A stretch of 46,789 bases of DNA from Pseudomonadota bacterium (GTDB taxonomy: Bacteria; Myxococcota; Myxococcia; Myxococcales; Myxococcaceae). Where the stretch lies: NCBI GenBank assembly GCA_009786315.1, contig WQTM01000232.1:1-46789 (forward strand), given 5' to 3'. The translations under genes were made by a program, and so were the position numbers. Shown in pieces: positions 1-9,297 of the stretch (the first letter of the stretch is position 1; each line of letters starts with the position of its first letter). The notes beneath the pieces were generated by a model. The model was given only the letters and a program-made list of their open reading frames with translations. It had not been told where the DNA came from and ran no database searches.

Positions 1-265
1 AAGTTCCCCGCCGGAGGCAAAATGCCCGGAGGGCGAGAAAGCCCGGGCCGCAGGCCCAGAGAGAACAACGCCCGAAGGGCGAAGAGAAACATTTCCAAAA
101 ATGGCCCGGGCCGCAGGCCCAAAGAGAACAACGCCCGAAGGGCGAAGAGAAACATTTCAAAAAAAAGCCCGGGCCGCAGGCCCAAAGAGAACAACACCCG
201 AAGGGTGAAGAGAAACATTTCAAAAAATGGCCCGGGCCGCAGGCCCAAAAACACATTGTCAGCTG
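1..265. repeat. Left copy of a GC-hairpin repeat element, inverted relative to the copy at 46607-46748
   Basis: nt 1-36 are the exact reverse complement of 46713-46748, with scattered mismatches after that. Both copies share the inner boundary ACATTGTCAGCTG (253-265 vs reverse complement of 46607-46619). The left copy has about 3.3 internal units and the right copy about 1.3. Confidence 0.85.
41..250 (-). repeat. 63-bp tandem repeat (about 3.3 copies). Each unit has two hairpin+U-tract modules when read on the minus strand
   Basis: GCCCGGGCCGCAGGCCC recurs at 41, 104, 167 and 230 (period 63). The minus-strand unit reads GGGCCTGCGGCCCGGGC-T(5-8)-GAAATGTTTCTCTT-CGCCCTTCGGGCG-TTGTTCTCTTT. It lies directly downstream of murI, which is on the minus strand. 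Confidence 0.85.
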
Positions 266-336
266 GCAACAACCCCGCCCGGAGGGCGAAAAAAGCAAAC
301 CCGCAGGCCCATACCTCCCCAGTCCCCACTCCTCTT

Positions 337-3291: not shown

Positions 3292-4116
3292 TTAGGGCCT
3301 GGGCAATTCGCTGTTGGGGTGTATTTCGCTTTGGCGGACGGCGAGGGAGTTGGGGGGGATGCTTCGCGTAATGAAGGCATTGCCCGCGACAATGCTGTTT
3401 TCTCCAATAACGGTGGAGCCGCCGAGAATGGTGGCATTGGCATAGACGACGACGCCGTCTTCGAGGGTGGGGTGGCGTTTTTGGTTGGCCATATGTTTGG
3501 CCACCGTCAACGCGCCCAGCGTTACGCCCTGGTAGAGTTTGACGTTGTTGCCGATGTACGTGGTTCCGCCAATAACAATGCCGGTACCGTGGTCAATGAA
3601 AAAGCGGTTGCCGATGCGAGCGGCGGGGTGAATGTCAATGCCTGTTTTCCAGTGGGCAAACTCCGTCAGCATACGCGGCACCAGGGGCATGTTGTGCAAG
3701 TGGAGGGCGTGGGCGAGCCTATAGAGGGCGATGGCATAGAAGCCGGGGTAGGTAAGAATCACTTCATCCAAGCTTTGGGCGGCCGGGTCCCCCTCGAAAA
3801 TGGCCTGGGCATCCGCTTGCATGGACTCATGCAGGAGCCACAACTCTTGGGAGAAGCGCTCTGGGAATGAGGGCTCTCGCGTAGGCGCGCCCGGGGGGCA
3901 GACGGCCCGAGTCAACTTGCCGAGCAGTTGCAGCAGGGAGAGCAACTCTTCCTCGAGGGCGGCTTTGGAGCAAGAGGTAAAGGTGGAGAAGTGGGGGAAG
4001 AGGAGTCCCATGGTTTGGGAGGCGAATTGTTGCACCAGGGGCTGTATTTTTGAGGGGAAGCAGTGCGCGCTGTGCGCGGCAAACAGCTGCTCAACCAAAG
4101 GAGGGTGGAAAGTCAT
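3292..4116 (-). CDS. cysE: Serine O-acetyltransferase
   Basis: Hexapeptide-repeat core DIHPAARIGNRFFIDHGTGIVIGGTTYIGNNVKLYQGVTLG. Start taken at the ATG at 4116; the ORF-track start at 4125 is TTG. Confidence 0.85.
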   Translation of the reverse strand: MTFHPPLVEQLFAAHSAHCFPSKIQPLVQQFASQTMGLLFPHFSTFTSCSKAALEEELLSLLQLLGKLTRAVCPPGAPTREPSFPERFSQELWLLHESMQADAQAIFEGDPAAQSLDEVILTYPGFYAIALYRLAHALHLHNMPLVPRMLTEFAHWKTGIDIHPAARIGNRFFIDHGTGIVIGGTTYIGNNVKLYQGVTLGALTVAKHMANQKRHPTLEDGVVVYANATILGGSTVIGENSIVAGNAFITRSIPPNSLAVRQSEIHPNSELPRP

Positions 4117-4193
4117 CCCCCGCAAGCTAGCATGTTTGGAGCATACGGACCAACCCCGGCGGTTTTCTATTTTCCCCCCCTGCGCCCCTTTTC

Positions 4194-5141
4194 CTACCTG
4201 CTTTTCTCAAACAAAGTTGTGCGCAATATTTGGGCCGAGTCCAAGGCCTTGTTGAGTTTGCCGAGCAGGGACATGACTTCCAGGCGCGAAACCTTCGCCC
4301 CCGCCCCCTTCTTTTTCAACTCCGCAAGGCTTGCCCTCGCCAACAACAGAGGGAAAGCCACAAAGGCCAAAATTCCCCGGTTGGCCCCTCCCGCTTGCAA
4401 GGCGTCGACATAGTCAACGGCCCGGAGCAAGTCCGCCTCTGCCAAGGCAAACACGGCTTGGTGGGAAACATTCGCGGGCAAATAGCTGCGGCCGTCCTCC
4501 TTGTCGCTGCTCTGGTCTTTCAAAATATTGACCAGTTGCAGGCCCTCGCCAAACAAAACCTCCGTCTCCTTCAACCGGTCCTTCACAGCCTCAAGCGTTG
4601 GGCATGCCAACAAAAAAAGCTCCGTCAGCAACTCTCCGACAATGCCGGCCACCCAATAGCAATAGCGGCGCAAGTCCTCCAACGTGGACAACTCAAAGCT
4701 GCCCTTCTCGTCCGCGCGCTCGACAATTCCATACATGCCCTCGCAGGTACGTTTGACGTGCTGGCGAATAATGGTTTGGGCCTGGGGCGAGAGCGTCAGA
4801 AACGTTTCCACGACAGCAACGGATTGAGCAATCAGCTGTTGGTAGCCTTTGTGCGCGCTTGGCATGGGGGATGACCATTCCGGGACAAATTGGGCAGCAA
4901 CCGCTGCCGGCGCCTCTGCGTCCAGCAGTGTTTCAAGTTGCTTGAGTGCACCCAAACGTTTGGCCCTGGGCCAGGCCTCTGCGTCCTCAAAAGTGTCCGC
5001 AATGCGAAAAAACAAATAGGCCAACCCGACTTCCTTGCGCGTGGGCTCCGCAAGCAGAGGAATTGCCAGCGCGAAAGTCCGGCTTGTCTTCAATAACCAT
5101 TCGTCCAACAAAGCCATGAAAACCATGGCTACTAAATTCAT
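4194..5141 (-). CDS. Squalene synthase-like head-to-head trans-isoprenyl diphosphate synthase
   Basis: Motifs TSRTFALAIPLL, FRIADTFED (DTxED type as in Sqs, not the DDxxD of CrtB), YCYWVAGIVGELLTELF and LQLVNILKDQSSDKEDGRSYLP. Divergently paired with a squalene epoxidase-like gene. Confidence 0.7.
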   Translation of the reverse strand: MNLVAMVFMALLDEWLLKTSRTFALAIPLLAEPTRKEVGLAYLFFRIADTFEDAEAWPRAKRLGALKQLETLLDAEAPAAVAAQFVPEWSSPMPSAHKGYQQLIAQSVAVVETFLTLSPQAQTIIRQHVKRTCEGMYGIVERADEKGSFELSTLEDLRRYCYWVAGIVGELLTELFLLACPTLEAVKDRLKETEVLFGEGLQLVNILKDQSSDKEDGRSYLPANVSHQAVFALAEADLLRAVDYVDALQAGGANRGILAFVAFPLLLARASLAELKKKGAGAKVSRLEVMSLLGKLNKALDSAQILRTTLFEKSR

Positions 5142-5163
5142 TCACTAAGCGCCAACGGCTTTT

Positions 5164-5220
5164 CGCGCAAAAACAGCGCGCAAAAATACCCTTGTCGCGC
5201 AAAAATAGCGCACAAAAAAA
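5164..5220. promoter_or_regulatory. Three direct CGCGCAAAAA repeats plus one degenerate copy in the sqs/sqe divergent intergenic region
   Basis: CGCGCAAAAA occurs at 5164-5173, 5177-5186 and 5196-5205, and GCGCACAAAAAAA at 5208-5220. This lies inside the 123-bp gap between the divergent starts at 5141 and 5265. Confidence 0.45.
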
Positions 5221-5264
5221 CAAATTTAGTTGTGTGAAATCAAAAAAATTCATAAAAGCAGTCT

Positions 5265-6647
5265 ATGCCAAATTTAGACATTGCTATCGTAGGTGGAGCT
5301 TTCACGGGGTTGTCGGCGGCGGCAGCACTGGCCGCACAAGGCTTAAAAGTGGCCGTTTTCGACAGCCTTTCTGGTCCCAACCCTCAATACCGTGGTGAGC
5401 TGATTCACCCGCGGGGTGTGCGTGGGCTTTCAAAGTGGGGGCTTTTGGAGCCACTGAGGAAAGCCGGTGGGCTGGATTTGAGTGGTTTTGCTGTTGCGCC
5501 TGAGGAGGATGGGAGTGAGGCGGTGCTTTTGGACTACCCCTCGTGGGGGGGCCCCGGCCTTGGCATTGAGCAGCACGCCATTGTCAACACCATGCGGGCG
5601 GAGGTTGCTGCGCGCCCCAATGTGACGTTGCACCTTGGCAAGCGCGTGGAGGGTTTGCTCCGAGAAAATGGCCGCATTGTCGGCCTCTATTTGGACGGTG
5701 GTGAGGAGGTGCGCGCAAGCCTCACCATTGGCGCTGACGGCCGTCAGTCCCATATGCGCCAATGGTTGGGTGTCCCCCACAAAGTCAAACTCCTCTCCTA
5801 TTCCGTCATCCTCACGGTGACAGAGGACGCTCTCCCCTATGGACGCCGCGGGCACGTCTTCCTGGGGGCGCCGGGCACCATTTTGGCCTACCCCTATGGA
5901 GAAAACCTTGTGCGCCTGTGCATTGACGTCTCCGTGGACGCGCCCAAAGGGCCCTCTGCCTGGAGAAGCCTCTTGCTGAATGAATATGTGCCCAAAATGC
6001 ATGAGCCTTTGCGTACAGCCGTCGAAAAAGTCCTCAGCGACGAAAGCCAGCCCATTGTCGCCGCGGGGACGCACTCCATCCGCACGGAGGCTTGTGTTGT
6101 GCCTGGGGCGCTGCTGGCAGGAGACGCTGCAGGTTGTGCACACCCCTTGACGGCGGGCGGCATGTTGAATGCTGTCAACGACGTGCTGCTTTTCTCCGAG
6201 TGCCTGGCCAAAGAGGGCCCCACGGACGAGGCCCTCAAAAACTTCCAGCGTGCGCGCTACCGCTTTATTCGCTCTCGCGAAATGTTTACGGACGCCCTCT
6301 ATGAGGTATTCAGCAGCAAGGCCGAAGGCGCTCGTGGTTTGCGCAAGGGCATTGTCCGCTATTGGCTTGAAAGCGAGCGTGCACGTGCCGCTTCCATGCG
6401 CATTTTGTCCGGCGATGAAACCAGCCCCACGGCCTTCTTGGGTGAGTATACCCGCGTCATGGGCCTTTCCACCTTGTCCATTTGGAGGAGTGAAAACGAC
6501 AAACTCACCGAGCGGGCTTTGCGCTTGTCGGCGCTGCTTCAAACCTCGTTGGGACGCTTGGAGCGTGCTGCTGAAATTACCATTGGCCAAATTTATGCGG
6601 ACCAGAAAACCCGCCTCAGTGCACTTCCCCCTCTCAAAGGCGAATAG
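5265..6647 (+). CDS. FAD-dependent squalene monooxygenase (squalene epoxidase)-like
   Basis: N-terminal dinucleotide fold DIAIVGGAFTGLSAAAALAAQGLKVAVFD. It is followed by YRGELIHPRGVRGLSKWGL (compare eukaryotic IVGELLQPGG..L..LGL) and GDAAGCAHPLTAGGMLNAVNDV (compare GDAxNMRHPLTGGGMTV). Confidence 0.7.
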   Translation: MPNLDIAIVGGAFTGLSAAAALAAQGLKVAVFDSLSGPNPQYRGELIHPRGVRGLSKWGLLEPLRKAGGLDLSGFAVAPEEDGSEAVLLDYPSWGGPGLGIEQHAIVNTMRAEVAARPNVTLHLGKRVEGLLRENGRIVGLYLDGGEEVRASLTIGADGRQSHMRQWLGVPHKVKLLSYSVILTVTEDALPYGRRGHVFLGAPGTILAYPYGENLVRLCIDVSVDAPKGPSAWRSLLLNEYVPKMHEPLRTAVEKVLSDESQPIVAAGTHSIRTEACVVPGALLAGDAAGCAHPLTAGGMLNAVNDVLLFSECLAKEGPTDEALKNFQRARYRFIRSREMFTDALYEVFSSKAEGARGLRKGIVRYWLESERARAASMRILSGDETSPTAFLGEYTRVMGLSTLSIWRSENDKLTERALRLSALLQTSLGRLERAAEITIGQIYADQKTRLSALPPLKGE

Positions 6648-6761
6648 GACTTCTCCCTCTTCTCCAGGGTAGCCCCCTTGAAAAATACTCGCTTGGGCCC
6701 TTGTGGTTTGGGCGGGTTTTTGTTTTTGAGGGGGGCATGCCGTCTCCAAGGAGTGTATGCC

Positions 6762-7673
6762 GTGAAAGCAAAAAGCATTCTCGAGTTGGTTGGCCGAACG
6801 CCGCACTTGCAGCTTTGCAAACTGTTTCCTCAGGCGGAGGTGTGGATGAAGTTGGAGCGCCAAAACCCCGGCGGCAGCCTCAAGGACCGTGTTGCGTTGG
6901 CAATGGTGGAGGCTGCTGAGAGAAGCGGCCTTCTCCAGAAAGGCTATACCATTGTTGAGCCTACCTCGGGCAATACGGGCATAGGCCTTGCCATGGTATG
7001 CGCAGCCAAAGGCTATGCCCTCATTCTCACCATGCCCGAGTCCATGTCCGTTGAGCGGCGCAACCTGCTTGCAGCCTATGGTGCACAACTGGTGTTGACG
7101 CCACACGCCGAAGGCATGTCCGGCGCCATAGCCAAGGCGCACCTGATTGCCCAAACCATGCCTCAGAGTTTCATGCCCTCGCAGTTTGAAAACCCTGAAA
7201 ACCCCGCCTGCCATGAGAGACAAACTGCCCGGGAAATTCTCGAGGACTTCCCTGAAGGTTTGGACGTGCTGGTGGCGGGTGTGGGCACCGGCGGCCATAT
7301 TTCAGGGTTGGCCAAAACCCTCAAACCAGTTTGGCCCAACTTGCATGTTGTCGCCGTGGAGCCCGCCTTGTCACCTGTGCTTTCAGGGGGACAGGCAGGC
7401 CCTCACCCTTTGCAAGGTATTGGTGCAGGTTTTGTGCCCCAAATGCTGTCCAGGGAGTGGGTGGACGAGGTGCTTTGTGTGGAGGGGGGAGAAGCCTTTG
7501 CTTGGTTGCGCAGGGCAGCGCGGGAAGAGGGCCTTTTGTGTGGCATTTCTTCGGCGGCGGTTTTGGCTGCGGCCAGCCGGTTGCTTTCTCAAAATGCTGC
7601 CCAGGGCCGCATTCTAACGCTCTGCTATGACAGTGCGGAGCGTTATTTGTCTGTTGAGGGTTTGTTGGCCTGA
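6762..7673 (+). CDS. cysK: Cysteine synthase A (O-acetylserine sulfhydrylase)
   Basis: Motifs NPGGSLKDR (PLP lysine) and EPTSGNTGIGLA. The GTG at 6762 has AAGGAG 8 nt upstream and gives 303 aa. The ORF-track start at 6678 is TTG. Confidence 0.9.
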   Translation: MKAKSILELVGRTPHLQLCKLFPQAEVWMKLERQNPGGSLKDRVALAMVEAAERSGLLQKGYTIVEPTSGNTGIGLAMVCAAKGYALILTMPESMSVERRNLLAAYGAQLVLTPHAEGMSGAIAKAHLIAQTMPQSFMPSQFENPENPACHERQTAREILEDFPEGLDVLVAGVGTGGHISGLAKTLKPVWPNLHVVAVEPALSPVLSGGQAGPHPLQGIGAGFVPQMLSREWVDEVLCVEGGEAFAWLRRAAREEGLLCGISSAAVLAAASRLLSQNAAQGRILTLCYDSAERYLSVEGLLA

Positions 7674-7728
7674 GAGGGGAGGGGAGGGTGGGCGTTTTTG
7701 TCCCTCCGCCCCCGCCATTGGGCTTATT

Positions 7729-9297
7729 TTATTCCAAGGTTATTTTTCGAATGCGGTGGTTATAGTTGTCTGCCACATAGAGGTTGTTGCCCTCCGCGTC
7801 CACCACAATGCCTGTGGGGTTAAAGAAGCGAGCAACATCTCCTGTGCCATCGGCAAAGTCGCCGTTGCCATAACCTATAGGGCCGCTGCCAGCAAGGGTA
7901 CTGACGACGCCCTCGGGGGTTACCATTCGGATGCGGTGGTTAAACCTATCTGCCACATAGAGGGTGCCCTTTGCGTCCACGGCGAGACCCATGGGGTAGT
8001 TGAATTGAGCATGGCTTCCCTCGCCGTCGGCAAAACCTGCTGTGCCTCCGGCGATGGTGAGGATGTTTCTTGTGGGAGTCACTTTGCTGATGCGGTGGTT
8101 AATGGTGTCGAGCACATAGAGGTTTCCTTGTGCGTCCACGTCCACGTCATAGGGAAAATCAAACGGTGCGGCAACTCCGAAGCCGCCGATAAGCGTGCTG
8201 ACAAACCCATTCGGAGCCACTTTTCGGATGCAGTTGTTATCAACATCCGCCACATAGAGGTTGCCTTGCGAGTCTGTGTTGAGGCCGCGAGGGGTATACC
8301 ACTGAGCATGTGTTGCGGGGCCGTCGGCGAAGCCTCGTGTTGTTCCGGAGAGGGTGGTGACGATTCCGGTGGGTGTTATTTTGCGGATGCGGTGGTTTTG
8401 GCTATCCGACACATAGAGGTTGTTTTCCAAGTCTGTGGCTATTCCATGAGGGAAGTGAAACTGTGCGAGTGTTGCTATGCCGTCAGCAGAACCTTGTGTA
8501 CTTCCGGCAAAGGTAGAGACGACGCCCTCGGGTGTTATTTTTCGGATGAGGCTGTTTCCGGTGTCTGCCACATAAATGTTGTTGTCCGTATCCATGCTAA
8601 TGGCTTCAGGGCGACGGAACTGTGCCTCCGTGCTGTTGCCGTTGCTGTTTCCCGACGTGCCGTTGCCGGCCAAGGTAGAGACAGTGGCTGTCAGCACATA
8701 GGTGAAGTGGGTGTTGGAGGTAGCGGTGTCGAGGGAGGTGGTGACTTGCACAAGGCCGGAACAGAGTTTGTTTTTGGGCACTTCAACACGTATTTCGGTT
8801 TCTGAGGCCGAGAGGACAACAGCGGGGACACCATTCAGAGTGACGTTGTTTTCCGAGAGGACGGGGCTGAAGTTTGCTCCCTGAATGCTCAATACAGAGC
8901 CAAAGCCTGCCGAGGTAGGGTTGAAGCTGTGAATGACAGGTATGGCAGAGGGAGAGGGGGCCTGGGTTTGGGTTATGGCCACCGTTTTGCTGAGCAGGTT
9001 ATTGCTTGCTGTTATGGTTATGGTAGCGAAGCGGGCATCCAAGCTGTCGTTTTGAGCCACCCGCACCGTCAATGTTTGTTCGCCGGTGCCGGAGCTGGGC
9101 AGCACGCTGCACCAGTCCGCGTCACAGTGCGCGGTCCAGTCGGTATTGGAGATGACATTAAAGCTTTTCTCGCTGGAGGCTTTCGAATGAAAAACAAGCT
9201 CTGTTGGGTTGACATCCAGTATAACGCCACAAGCAACCGCCCCCGCTATTATTAAAAACAACAAAAAAATCGAATATTTTCTTTTTGCGGTGCTCAT
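7729..9297 (-). CDS. Secreted or lipoprotein-like protein with BACON-like, IPT/TIG and six NHL repeats
   Basis: Signal peptide with a possible lipobox (LIIAGAVAC). BACON-like segment DWCSVLPSSGTGEQTLTVRV...ATITITA. IPT-like segment IHSFNPTSAGFGSVLSIQGANF. Repeated NLYVAD..NHRIRKITP units. Confidence 0.75.
   Translation of the reverse strand: MSTAKRKYSIFLLFLIIAGAVACGVILDVNPTELVFHSKASSEKSFNVISNTDWTAHCDADWCSVLPSSGTGEQTLTVRVAQNDSLDARFATITITASNNLLSKTVAITQTQAPSPSAIPVIHSFNPTSAGFGSVLSIQGANFSPVLSENNVTLNGVPAVVLSASETEIRVEVPKNKLCSGLVQVTTSLDTATSNTHFTYVLTATVSTLAGNGTSGNSNGNSTEAQFRRPEAISMDTDNNIYVADTGNSLIRKITPEGVVSTFAGSTQGSADGIATLAQFHFPHGIATDLENNLYVSDSQNHRIRKITPTGIVTTLSGTTRGFADGPATHAQWYTPRGLNTDSQGNLYVADVDNNCIRKVAPNGFVSTLIGGFGVAAPFDFPYDVDVDAQGNLYVLDTINHRISKVTPTRNILTIAGGTAGFADGEGSHAQFNYPMGLAVDAKGTLYVADRFNHRIRMVTPEGVVSTLAGSGPIGYGNGDFADGTGDVARFFNPTGIVVDAEGNNLYVADNYNHRIRKITLE

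Follow-up and report, generated by a model that had tools for sequence, protein, structure and literature searches.

Sterol synthesis in Myxococcota is well documented, and a three-gene protosterol set (squalene synthase and epoxidase, with an oxidosqualene cyclase of the cycloartenol type) has already been described in the Cystobacterineae (reportedly by Bode et al. 2003), so that the divergent gene pair treated here adds no new biochemistry. In the described systems, the genes for squalene epoxidase and cycloartenol synthase lie two locus tags apart, namely in Stigmatella aurantiaca (STAUR_5418-5420), Cystobacter fuscus (D187_003104-3106) and Corallococcus coralloides (COCOR_01775-01777) (Wei et al. 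2016, PMC4919349), and, of the later sterol genes, the Cystobacterineae keep only those for squalene monooxygenase and oxidosqualene cyclase (Hoshino and Gaucher 2021, PMC8237579). The pair in question occupies positions 4194 to 6647 of a stretch of 46,789 nucleotides (contig WQTM01000232.1, the window in what follows), which belongs to a metagenome-assembled genome (MAG) of 2.11 Mb in 232 contigs, 94.7% complete (G000), and was compared with two congeneric genomes, G001 (2.3 Mb) and G002 (2.7 Mb). It very probably codes for the enzymes of the first two committed steps in a minimal bacterial pathway to a protosterol; the pathway has three enzymes, and the gene for the third, the cyclase, is unlinked from the pair. 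The trio is a member of the Cystobacterineae set, found in an unusual host-associated lineage. The two genes of the pair are the following:

4194..5141, minus strand: squalene synthase (EC 2.5.1.21; single-enzyme Sqs type, short bacterial form), open reading frame of 315 aa
5265..6647, plus strand: squalene epoxidase / squalene monooxygenase (EC 1.14.14.17; FAD-dependent), myxobacterial clade, open reading frame of 460 aa

The first-pass annotation, made from the letters of the window, had read these genes as possible entry steps of sterol synthesis, and this reading is supported by sequence, by fold, by synteny and by a cyclase in the same organism. The two divergent open reading frames that it placed between cysE and cysK are in the window's list at these positions, 123 bp apart, and the motifs that it quoted are all in the translations (TSRTFA, DTFED, YCYWVAGIVGE and NILKD...GRSYLP on the minus strand; GELIHPRG and GDAAGCAHPLTAGGM on the plus strand). 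It was also right that no oxidosqualene cyclase gene lies inside the window.

In common with the Cystobacterineae set, the system comprises the three enzymes named above, has no downstream demethylation genes and keeps the synthase and epoxidase genes divergent. Unlike that set, the cyclase here stands apart from the pair, upstream of tolQRAB, while the pair itself sits between cysE and cysK; the FAD motif of the epoxidase (GGAFTG) is specific to the genus, and the hosts are small genomes from termite guts. The closest homologues (92-95% identical) carry the label of Cystobacterineae MAGs, and the next tier, at about 50%, consists of Myxococcaceae and Archangiaceae; relative to the orthologues of free-living Myxococcaceae, epoxidase and synthase are about 50% identical and the cyclase about 60%. 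Among these relatives, an Archangium MAG holds the cyclase (+), synthase (-) and epoxidase (+) genes side by side, and the epoxidase orthologue is no more than 10 kb from a cyclase in four further genomes, three of the same family and one of the same order (G006, G011, G015 and G040); the locus tags of Stigmatella, Cystobacter and Corallococcus point to a similar arrangement (PMC4919349). All the runs that hold the window are termite-gut metagenomes, and the genomes of the genus measure 2.1-2.7 Mb at 88-99% completeness, against 4.4-11.5 Mb in the other sampled members of the GTDB family, which has the appearance of strongly reduced genomes in a Myxococcaceae lineage associated with a host.

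The cyclase and the assembly gap

Searches of the MAG with the PF13243 profile and with tblastn return no oxidosqualene cyclase (nor does the profile find a squalene-hopene cyclase there), yet both congeners carry one. In G001 it is an open reading frame of 653 aa, and downstream of it lie tolQ, tolR, a TolA-like gene and tolB. In the MAG, one contig (C57, 3944 bp) stops just upstream of the expected cyclase start, another (C216) starts within the TolA-like gene, and the orthologues of tolQ and tolR are likewise absent. The window gene pair is present in three termite-gut metagenome runs, in two of them complete, and the Logan contigs of those runs cover the cyclase-tolQ-tolR region of G001 at about 85% identity, with the same records matching C57 and C216 at zero mismatches. 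The depth of the cyclase-bearing records (34-40 and 80) compares with 38 and 76 for the window. One Logan contig (L029) consists of the whole of C57 (3944 bp, 100% identity) followed by an intact cyclase gene (P0242, at about 4056-5981 of L029), tolQ and tolR, and a contig of 35.6 kb from run X2 matches both C57 and C216 without mismatch and has the cyclase segment between them, again at a depth of 80 against 76 for the window. Since contigs run from C57 into the cyclase and join C216, the cyclase is the organism's own, and its absence from the MAG arose only in assembly. A search for it beyond the window had been proposed in the first-pass annotation; the answer is that the organism has the gene, in an assembly gap that contigs of the same runs bridge.

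The protein itself scores 570 bits against human lanosterol synthase and 142 bits against squalene-hopene cyclase; it passes the model TIGR01787 (571 bits, cut-off 323) and stays below the cut-off of the hopene cyclase model (239 bits). Oxidosqualene cyclases have an acid motif of the form xxDCTAE and squalene-hopene cyclases one of the form DxDD, and the motif here, ISDCTGE (SDCT), is of the xxDCTAE class. By alignment, the residues at human positions 381, 449 and 453 are Tyr, His and Ile. The combination Y381/H449/I453 is the cycloartenol synthase signature, with I453 fully correlated with cycloartenol in the bacteria tested (PMC4919349). In all three termite-gut species the gene immediately precedes tolQ-tolR-tolA-like-tolB, with which it shares the strand, at a distance of 66-80 bp from tolQ (L029:3978-7452; L025:1363-6649; L026), and is unlinked from the synthase-epoxidase pair, whereas it neighbours the pair in free-living relatives.

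The case has a bearing on genome surveys, in the sense that a MAG of this completeness gave a false absence of the cyclase, which could be put right only through congeners and through other assemblies that run across the contig ends. Calls of cyclase absence in MAG surveys, for sterols or hopanoids alike, need a check of contig ends and of congeneric genomes.

Synthase and epoxidase in comparison with known enzymes

The synthase matches PF00494 at 119 bits in the profile search, and its top NCBIfam model is that of squalene synthase (TIGR01559, 90.5 bits), ahead of HpnD (48), HpnC (43) and CrtB (39), these last three also being under their curated cut-offs. Its top PDB sequence matches are fungal and human squalene synthases. 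An AlphaFold (AF2) model built from 29 homologues (pLDDT 94.4) retrieves, with Foldseek against the PDB, squalene synthases at all of the ranks 1-41 (E 9e-10 to 2e-7, TMq up to 0.78), and CrtM-type enzymes enter the list at rank 42 (E about 2e-6). The protein groups, on these rankings, with squalene synthases and not with CrtM/CrtB, which bears out the assignment made at first pass. Similar to human FDFT1 (PDB 3VJ8/1EZF) and the Aspergillus flavus enzyme (7WGH), it has the all-helical class I terpenoid synthase fold and keeps DTFED as first Asp-rich motif (by alignment of PDB sequences), the section-A Tyr (rat/human Y171) within YCYWVAGIVGE (YCxxVAG), and D219/D223 of the second motif. Unlike them, it has about 307 aa and no C-terminal membrane anchor, shares about 22% identity, and reads DQSSD where they have DYLED, with both outer Asp residues retained. 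The residues D41, D45, D201, D205 and Y152 are invariant in the homologue alignment. As for the start, the third Met (Met9, at 5117, giving the length of about 307 aa) is likely the true one, because of the alignment with the G002 orthologue and of the homologues' lengths of 300-303 aa.

The HpnC/HpnD/HpnE route of hopanoid synthesis leads to the same product, squalene, and also uses enzymes of the PF00494 family. Unlike that route, a single gene of the family (SQS/PSY) is found here by tblastn in the G000 assembly, which argues against the two-paralogue HpnC/HpnD route, and the HpnC and HpnD models score below the Sqs model. A search for partners of the amine-oxidase family (HpnE/CrtN), which would point to another route, gave two genes. 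One is protoporphyrinogen-oxidase-like (G000:C113). The other, a flavoprotein of the CrtI family (G000:C6:469-1881; TIGR02734, 115 bits, under cut-off), was rejected as a partner: it is not linked to the sterol genes, the search of G001 found no counterpart, and that of G002 gave a weaker partial match at most. The minus-strand protein is thus read, from its sequence and fold, as a squalene synthase that would carry out the NADPH-dependent reduction of presqualene diphosphate, and squalene is its probable product because its gene is the sole one of PF00494 found and because the epoxidase and the cyclase, both of which require squalene, are under selection.

The best PDB sequence for the epoxidase is human SQLE (6c6n, 83 bits in phmmer, with the runner-up at 43), in an alignment that spans residues 5-420 and includes the C-terminal helical domain. 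Its AlphaFold (AF2) model (pLDDT 87.7, pTM 0.88) places human SQLE structures at Foldseek ranks 1-3 (E 2.5e-31 to 1e-29, TM 0.84-0.86); the next matches, KMO and PqsL, follow at E of about 1e-21 and TMq 0.63-0.70 (the first of these at E 6.5e-22 and TMq 0.66), no other match exceeds a TMq of about 0.70, and UbiH appears only at rank 49. The monooxygenase goes, both by bit score and by fold, with SQLE and not with UbiH or geranylgeranyl reductase, as the first-pass annotation had proposed. A maximum-likelihood tree was also calculated (with the epoxidase clade, a second myxobacterial epoxidase-like clade, human SQLE and two FAD-monooxygenase outgroups), for which no rooting is claimed; it was set aside because the outgroup branches, 8-9 changes per site long, were arbitrarily placed, and the gaps in fold and bit score are used instead.

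With the human enzyme (PDB 6C6N/6C6P/6C6R; PMC6327030) the epoxidase shares the three-domain fold, which is that of group A flavoprotein monooxygenases with the substrate domain specific to squalene epoxidases and the C-terminal helical (membrane) domain; it differs from it in its sequence (about 23% identity), in having no N-terminal regulatory domain, and in four residues, Y195 and Q168 being replaced by Phe and His, H522 by Glu and P505 by Ser. The GD motif is at residues 286-287 and HPLTAGGM (the HPLT-GGM motif) at 293-300. Of the human residues mapped, which are those singled out by Padyana et al. 2019 (PMC6327030), Tyr335 holds a water at the flavin N5, and L473, F477, L509 and V526 form the hydrophobic tunnel; all five are conserved here, as Y209, L345, F349, L381 and V398, respectively. 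Sequence and model together point to the plus-strand protein as a squalene epoxidase, which would convert squalene into (3S)-2,3-oxidosqualene.

Selection, end product and competing readings

How might the three proteins work together? Each of the three species has an HMG-CoA reductase, and farnesyl diphosphate can therefore come from the mevalonate pathway; the synthase would condense two molecules of it head-to-head and reduce the resulting compound to squalene. From squalene, O2 and reducing equivalents, the FAD-dependent monooxygenase would then form 2,3-oxidosqualene, which the unlinked cyclase of cycloartenol-synthase type, encoded upstream of tolQ-tolR-tolA-tolB, would convert into a cyclic protosterol, cycloartenol being the most likely one. 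A look-out for sterol demethylase genes, likewise suggested at first pass, finds no CYP51 or other P450, and no ERG4/ERG24-family gene, in G000, G001 and G002, whereas genes of both kinds are found in the free-living family members G011 and G015. Given the absence of CYP51 and ERG24 (that is, of 14-demethylase and C-14 reductase), the unmodified protosterol is the probable end product, as in Stigmatella and Cystobacter. The activities of the enzymes, their product and the expression of the three genes in the gut are what we infer from the genes.

Pairwise ratios of non-synonymous to synonymous substitution (dN/dS) among the three species are 0.04-0.06 for the epoxidase, 0.11-0.16 for the synthase and 0.09-0.12 for the cyclase, to be compared with 0.08-0.09 for metK and 0.10-0.17 for uppP, cysK, cysE and mutS, which makes the epoxidase the most constrained of the nine genes measured. 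The three genes are under strong purifying selection and are being maintained, not decaying.

A number of points weigh against the protosterol reading, and are given here with the alternatives that they favour. To begin with the curated models, the synthase misses the equivalog cut-off of TIGR01559 (90.5 against 286.75 bits), this model being built on longer enzymes of the eukaryote type, and the cyclase remains under the cut-off of TIGR03463 (690 against 851 bits).

The epoxidase requires O2, and the termite gut is largely anoxic. Moreover, no RNA run searched contains the gene. Could the genes be intact and the pathway nonetheless stop at squalene in vivo, with an epoxidase that is inactive or unexpressed in a low-oxygen gut? 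In human SQLE the Tyr195-Gln168 pair is needed for activity, and the exchange Y195F loses more than 90% of it (PMC6327030); the corresponding residues here are Phe75 and His48. Furthermore, the third position of the GxGxxG motif, which is Gly in 111 of the 121 members of the clade, is Ala in the termite-gut genus (GGAFTG), and this genus-specific change (G12A) is accompanied by E33D and F364V, all three at positions that are near-invariant elsewhere. There is also the precedent of Corallococcus coralloides, which has homologues of squalene epoxidase and cycloartenol synthase and yet yielded only squalene in culture (PMC4919349), which shows, at the same time, that genes of this kind can remain silent there. 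Nevertheless, none of the 121 clade members departs from the Phe75/His48 pair, not even those encoded beside cyclases, and the pair is for this reason a character of the clade and not the decay or defect of one gene; it suggests, as far as a sequence comparison can, another way of holding the substrate or the flavin in the bacterial enzymes. Besides, the epoxidase shows the lowest dN/dS of the nine genes and the cyclase is constrained too, and constraint of this strength, in genomes cut to the present size, is hard to explain if the genes were unused. On balance, a pathway stopping at squalene is unlikely.

Still less likely is that the pair belongs to another isoprenoid pathway, with a synthase of the CrtM/CrtB type making dehydrosqualene or phytoene and a UbiH-like hydroxylase or geranylgeranyl reductase beside it. 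The match of the epoxidase to PF08491, the squalene epoxidase family (100 bits in the profile search), was rejected as proof of its identity, since in a control search the same model exceeds its cut-off in E. coli and Caulobacter too; in NCBIfam the flavoprotein matches the Ubi-OHase subfamily best (88 bits, under cut-off), with no squalene epoxidase model among the matches; and the MAG holds the CrtI-family gene mentioned above. That gene, however, is unlinked and without a consistent counterpart in the congeners, SQLE and squalene synthase come clearly first by sequence and by fold, and proximity to oxidosqualene cyclase genes is seen repeatedly in the family. Finally, a truncated pathway, in which the cyclase has been lost and squalene and/or 2,3-oxidosqualene are end products for the bacterium's own membrane or for a partner organism, would fit the split cluster, the lack of a cyclase near the pair and the empty searches of the MAG, but is hardly credible and true loss was rejected, given that independent assemblies extend C57 at full identity into an intact cyclase and link it to C216, that both congeners hold the gene at the same place and that its dN/dS is as low as stated.

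To return to the protosterol reading, the retention of the mevalonate pathway and of synthase, epoxidase and cyclase under strong purifying selection in a small genome suggests that the protosterol has a real function in this reduced, host-associated bacterium. The host is a sterol-auxotrophic insect, with no sterol synthesis of its own. It is conceivable, if improbable, that the importance of the sterol for the association is the reason why this host-restricted lineage still makes protosterol de novo: a sterol of the cycloartenol type might be handed on to the insect, or the bacterium itself might require it in order to live on or in host tissue at a gut wall that would be micro-oxic. If this were true, the move of the cyclase beside Tol-Pal genes and the operator-like GCGCAAAAA boxes between the pair would amount to a lineage-specific control of the sterol content of the envelope.

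Gene neighbourhood and intergenic region

The further features of the locus are as follows:

3292..4125, minus strand: serine O-acetyltransferase (cysE / EpsC type; NF041874, TIGR01172), context, outside the sterol module
5142..5264, no strand: promoter and control region between the divergent genes, containing three GCGCAAAAA boxes (5164-5220) as well as GTTGTGTG and TTCATAAA blocks, from reading of the sequence
6687..6717, plus strand: terminator-like hairpin, 13-bp stem followed by TTTTTGTTTTT, from a consensus scan
6762..7673, plus strand: cysteine synthase A (cysK; TIGR01139, length in congener loci), context

The product of the first of these passes NF041874, the model of the EpsC-type serine O-acetyltransferase, at 164 bits (cut-off 150), and matches TIGR01172 (cysE) at 171 bits; that of cysK exceeds the cut-off of TIGR01139 (382 against 351 bits). 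The most likely start of cysK is 6762, which gives 303 aa, the length of the cysK called in the congener loci.

The first-pass annotation had taken the position of the pair as consistent with an insertion into an ancestral cysE/cysK locus, a proposal that holds in one part and not in the other. Ten loci of the family, those whose cysK orthologues are closest, were compared, and in nine of them cysE lies directly upstream of cysK and in the same direction, from which it follows that the cysE-cysK neighbourhood is ancestral and has been split by the pair, as seen in G000 and G001. A single clean insertion as the full story was rejected, on two grounds: cysE in the window is on the strand opposite to cysK (inverted relative to the family order), which requires an additional inversion, and the G002 locus reads uppP-metK-synthase-epoxidase, with neither cysE nor cysK there (L060, G002:C42). 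Gene order thus points to rearrangement during genome reduction as the history of the locus. The best cysK-like gene of G002 (G002:C6:75663-76565) is 55% identical and lies away from the metK-synthase-epoxidase locus; the genes of cysteine synthesis may be turning over within the genus.

The intergenic region (5142-5264) has a mean column identity of 86% over the three species, where the flanking genes have a synonymous divergence (dS) of 0.4-1.2, and the three GCGCAAAAA boxes and the GTTGTGTG and TTCATAAA blocks are conserved in all of them. In G002 the first box is a perfect palindrome (TTTTTGCGCAAAAA), and the boxes are a likely operator. A consensus scan of the region gives no sigma-70 match. 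The hairpin at 6687-6717 falls after the stop codon of the epoxidase and before the start of cysK, and predicts (from the consensus scan only) separate transcription of the two genes.

Downstream, between cysK and mutS, G000 encodes a BACON-TIG-NHL repeat protein (7729-9297) that is missing at that place in contigs of the G001 type. Logan contigs break at 7729-7761, the depth doubles over 7676-7842 and 'goes back' joints occur across 7739-8000, all of which indicates a repeated sequence at this boundary. The contig start (window 1-300) shows, in every reading frame, a unit repeated in tandem, for example PGRRPKENNARRAKRNISK.

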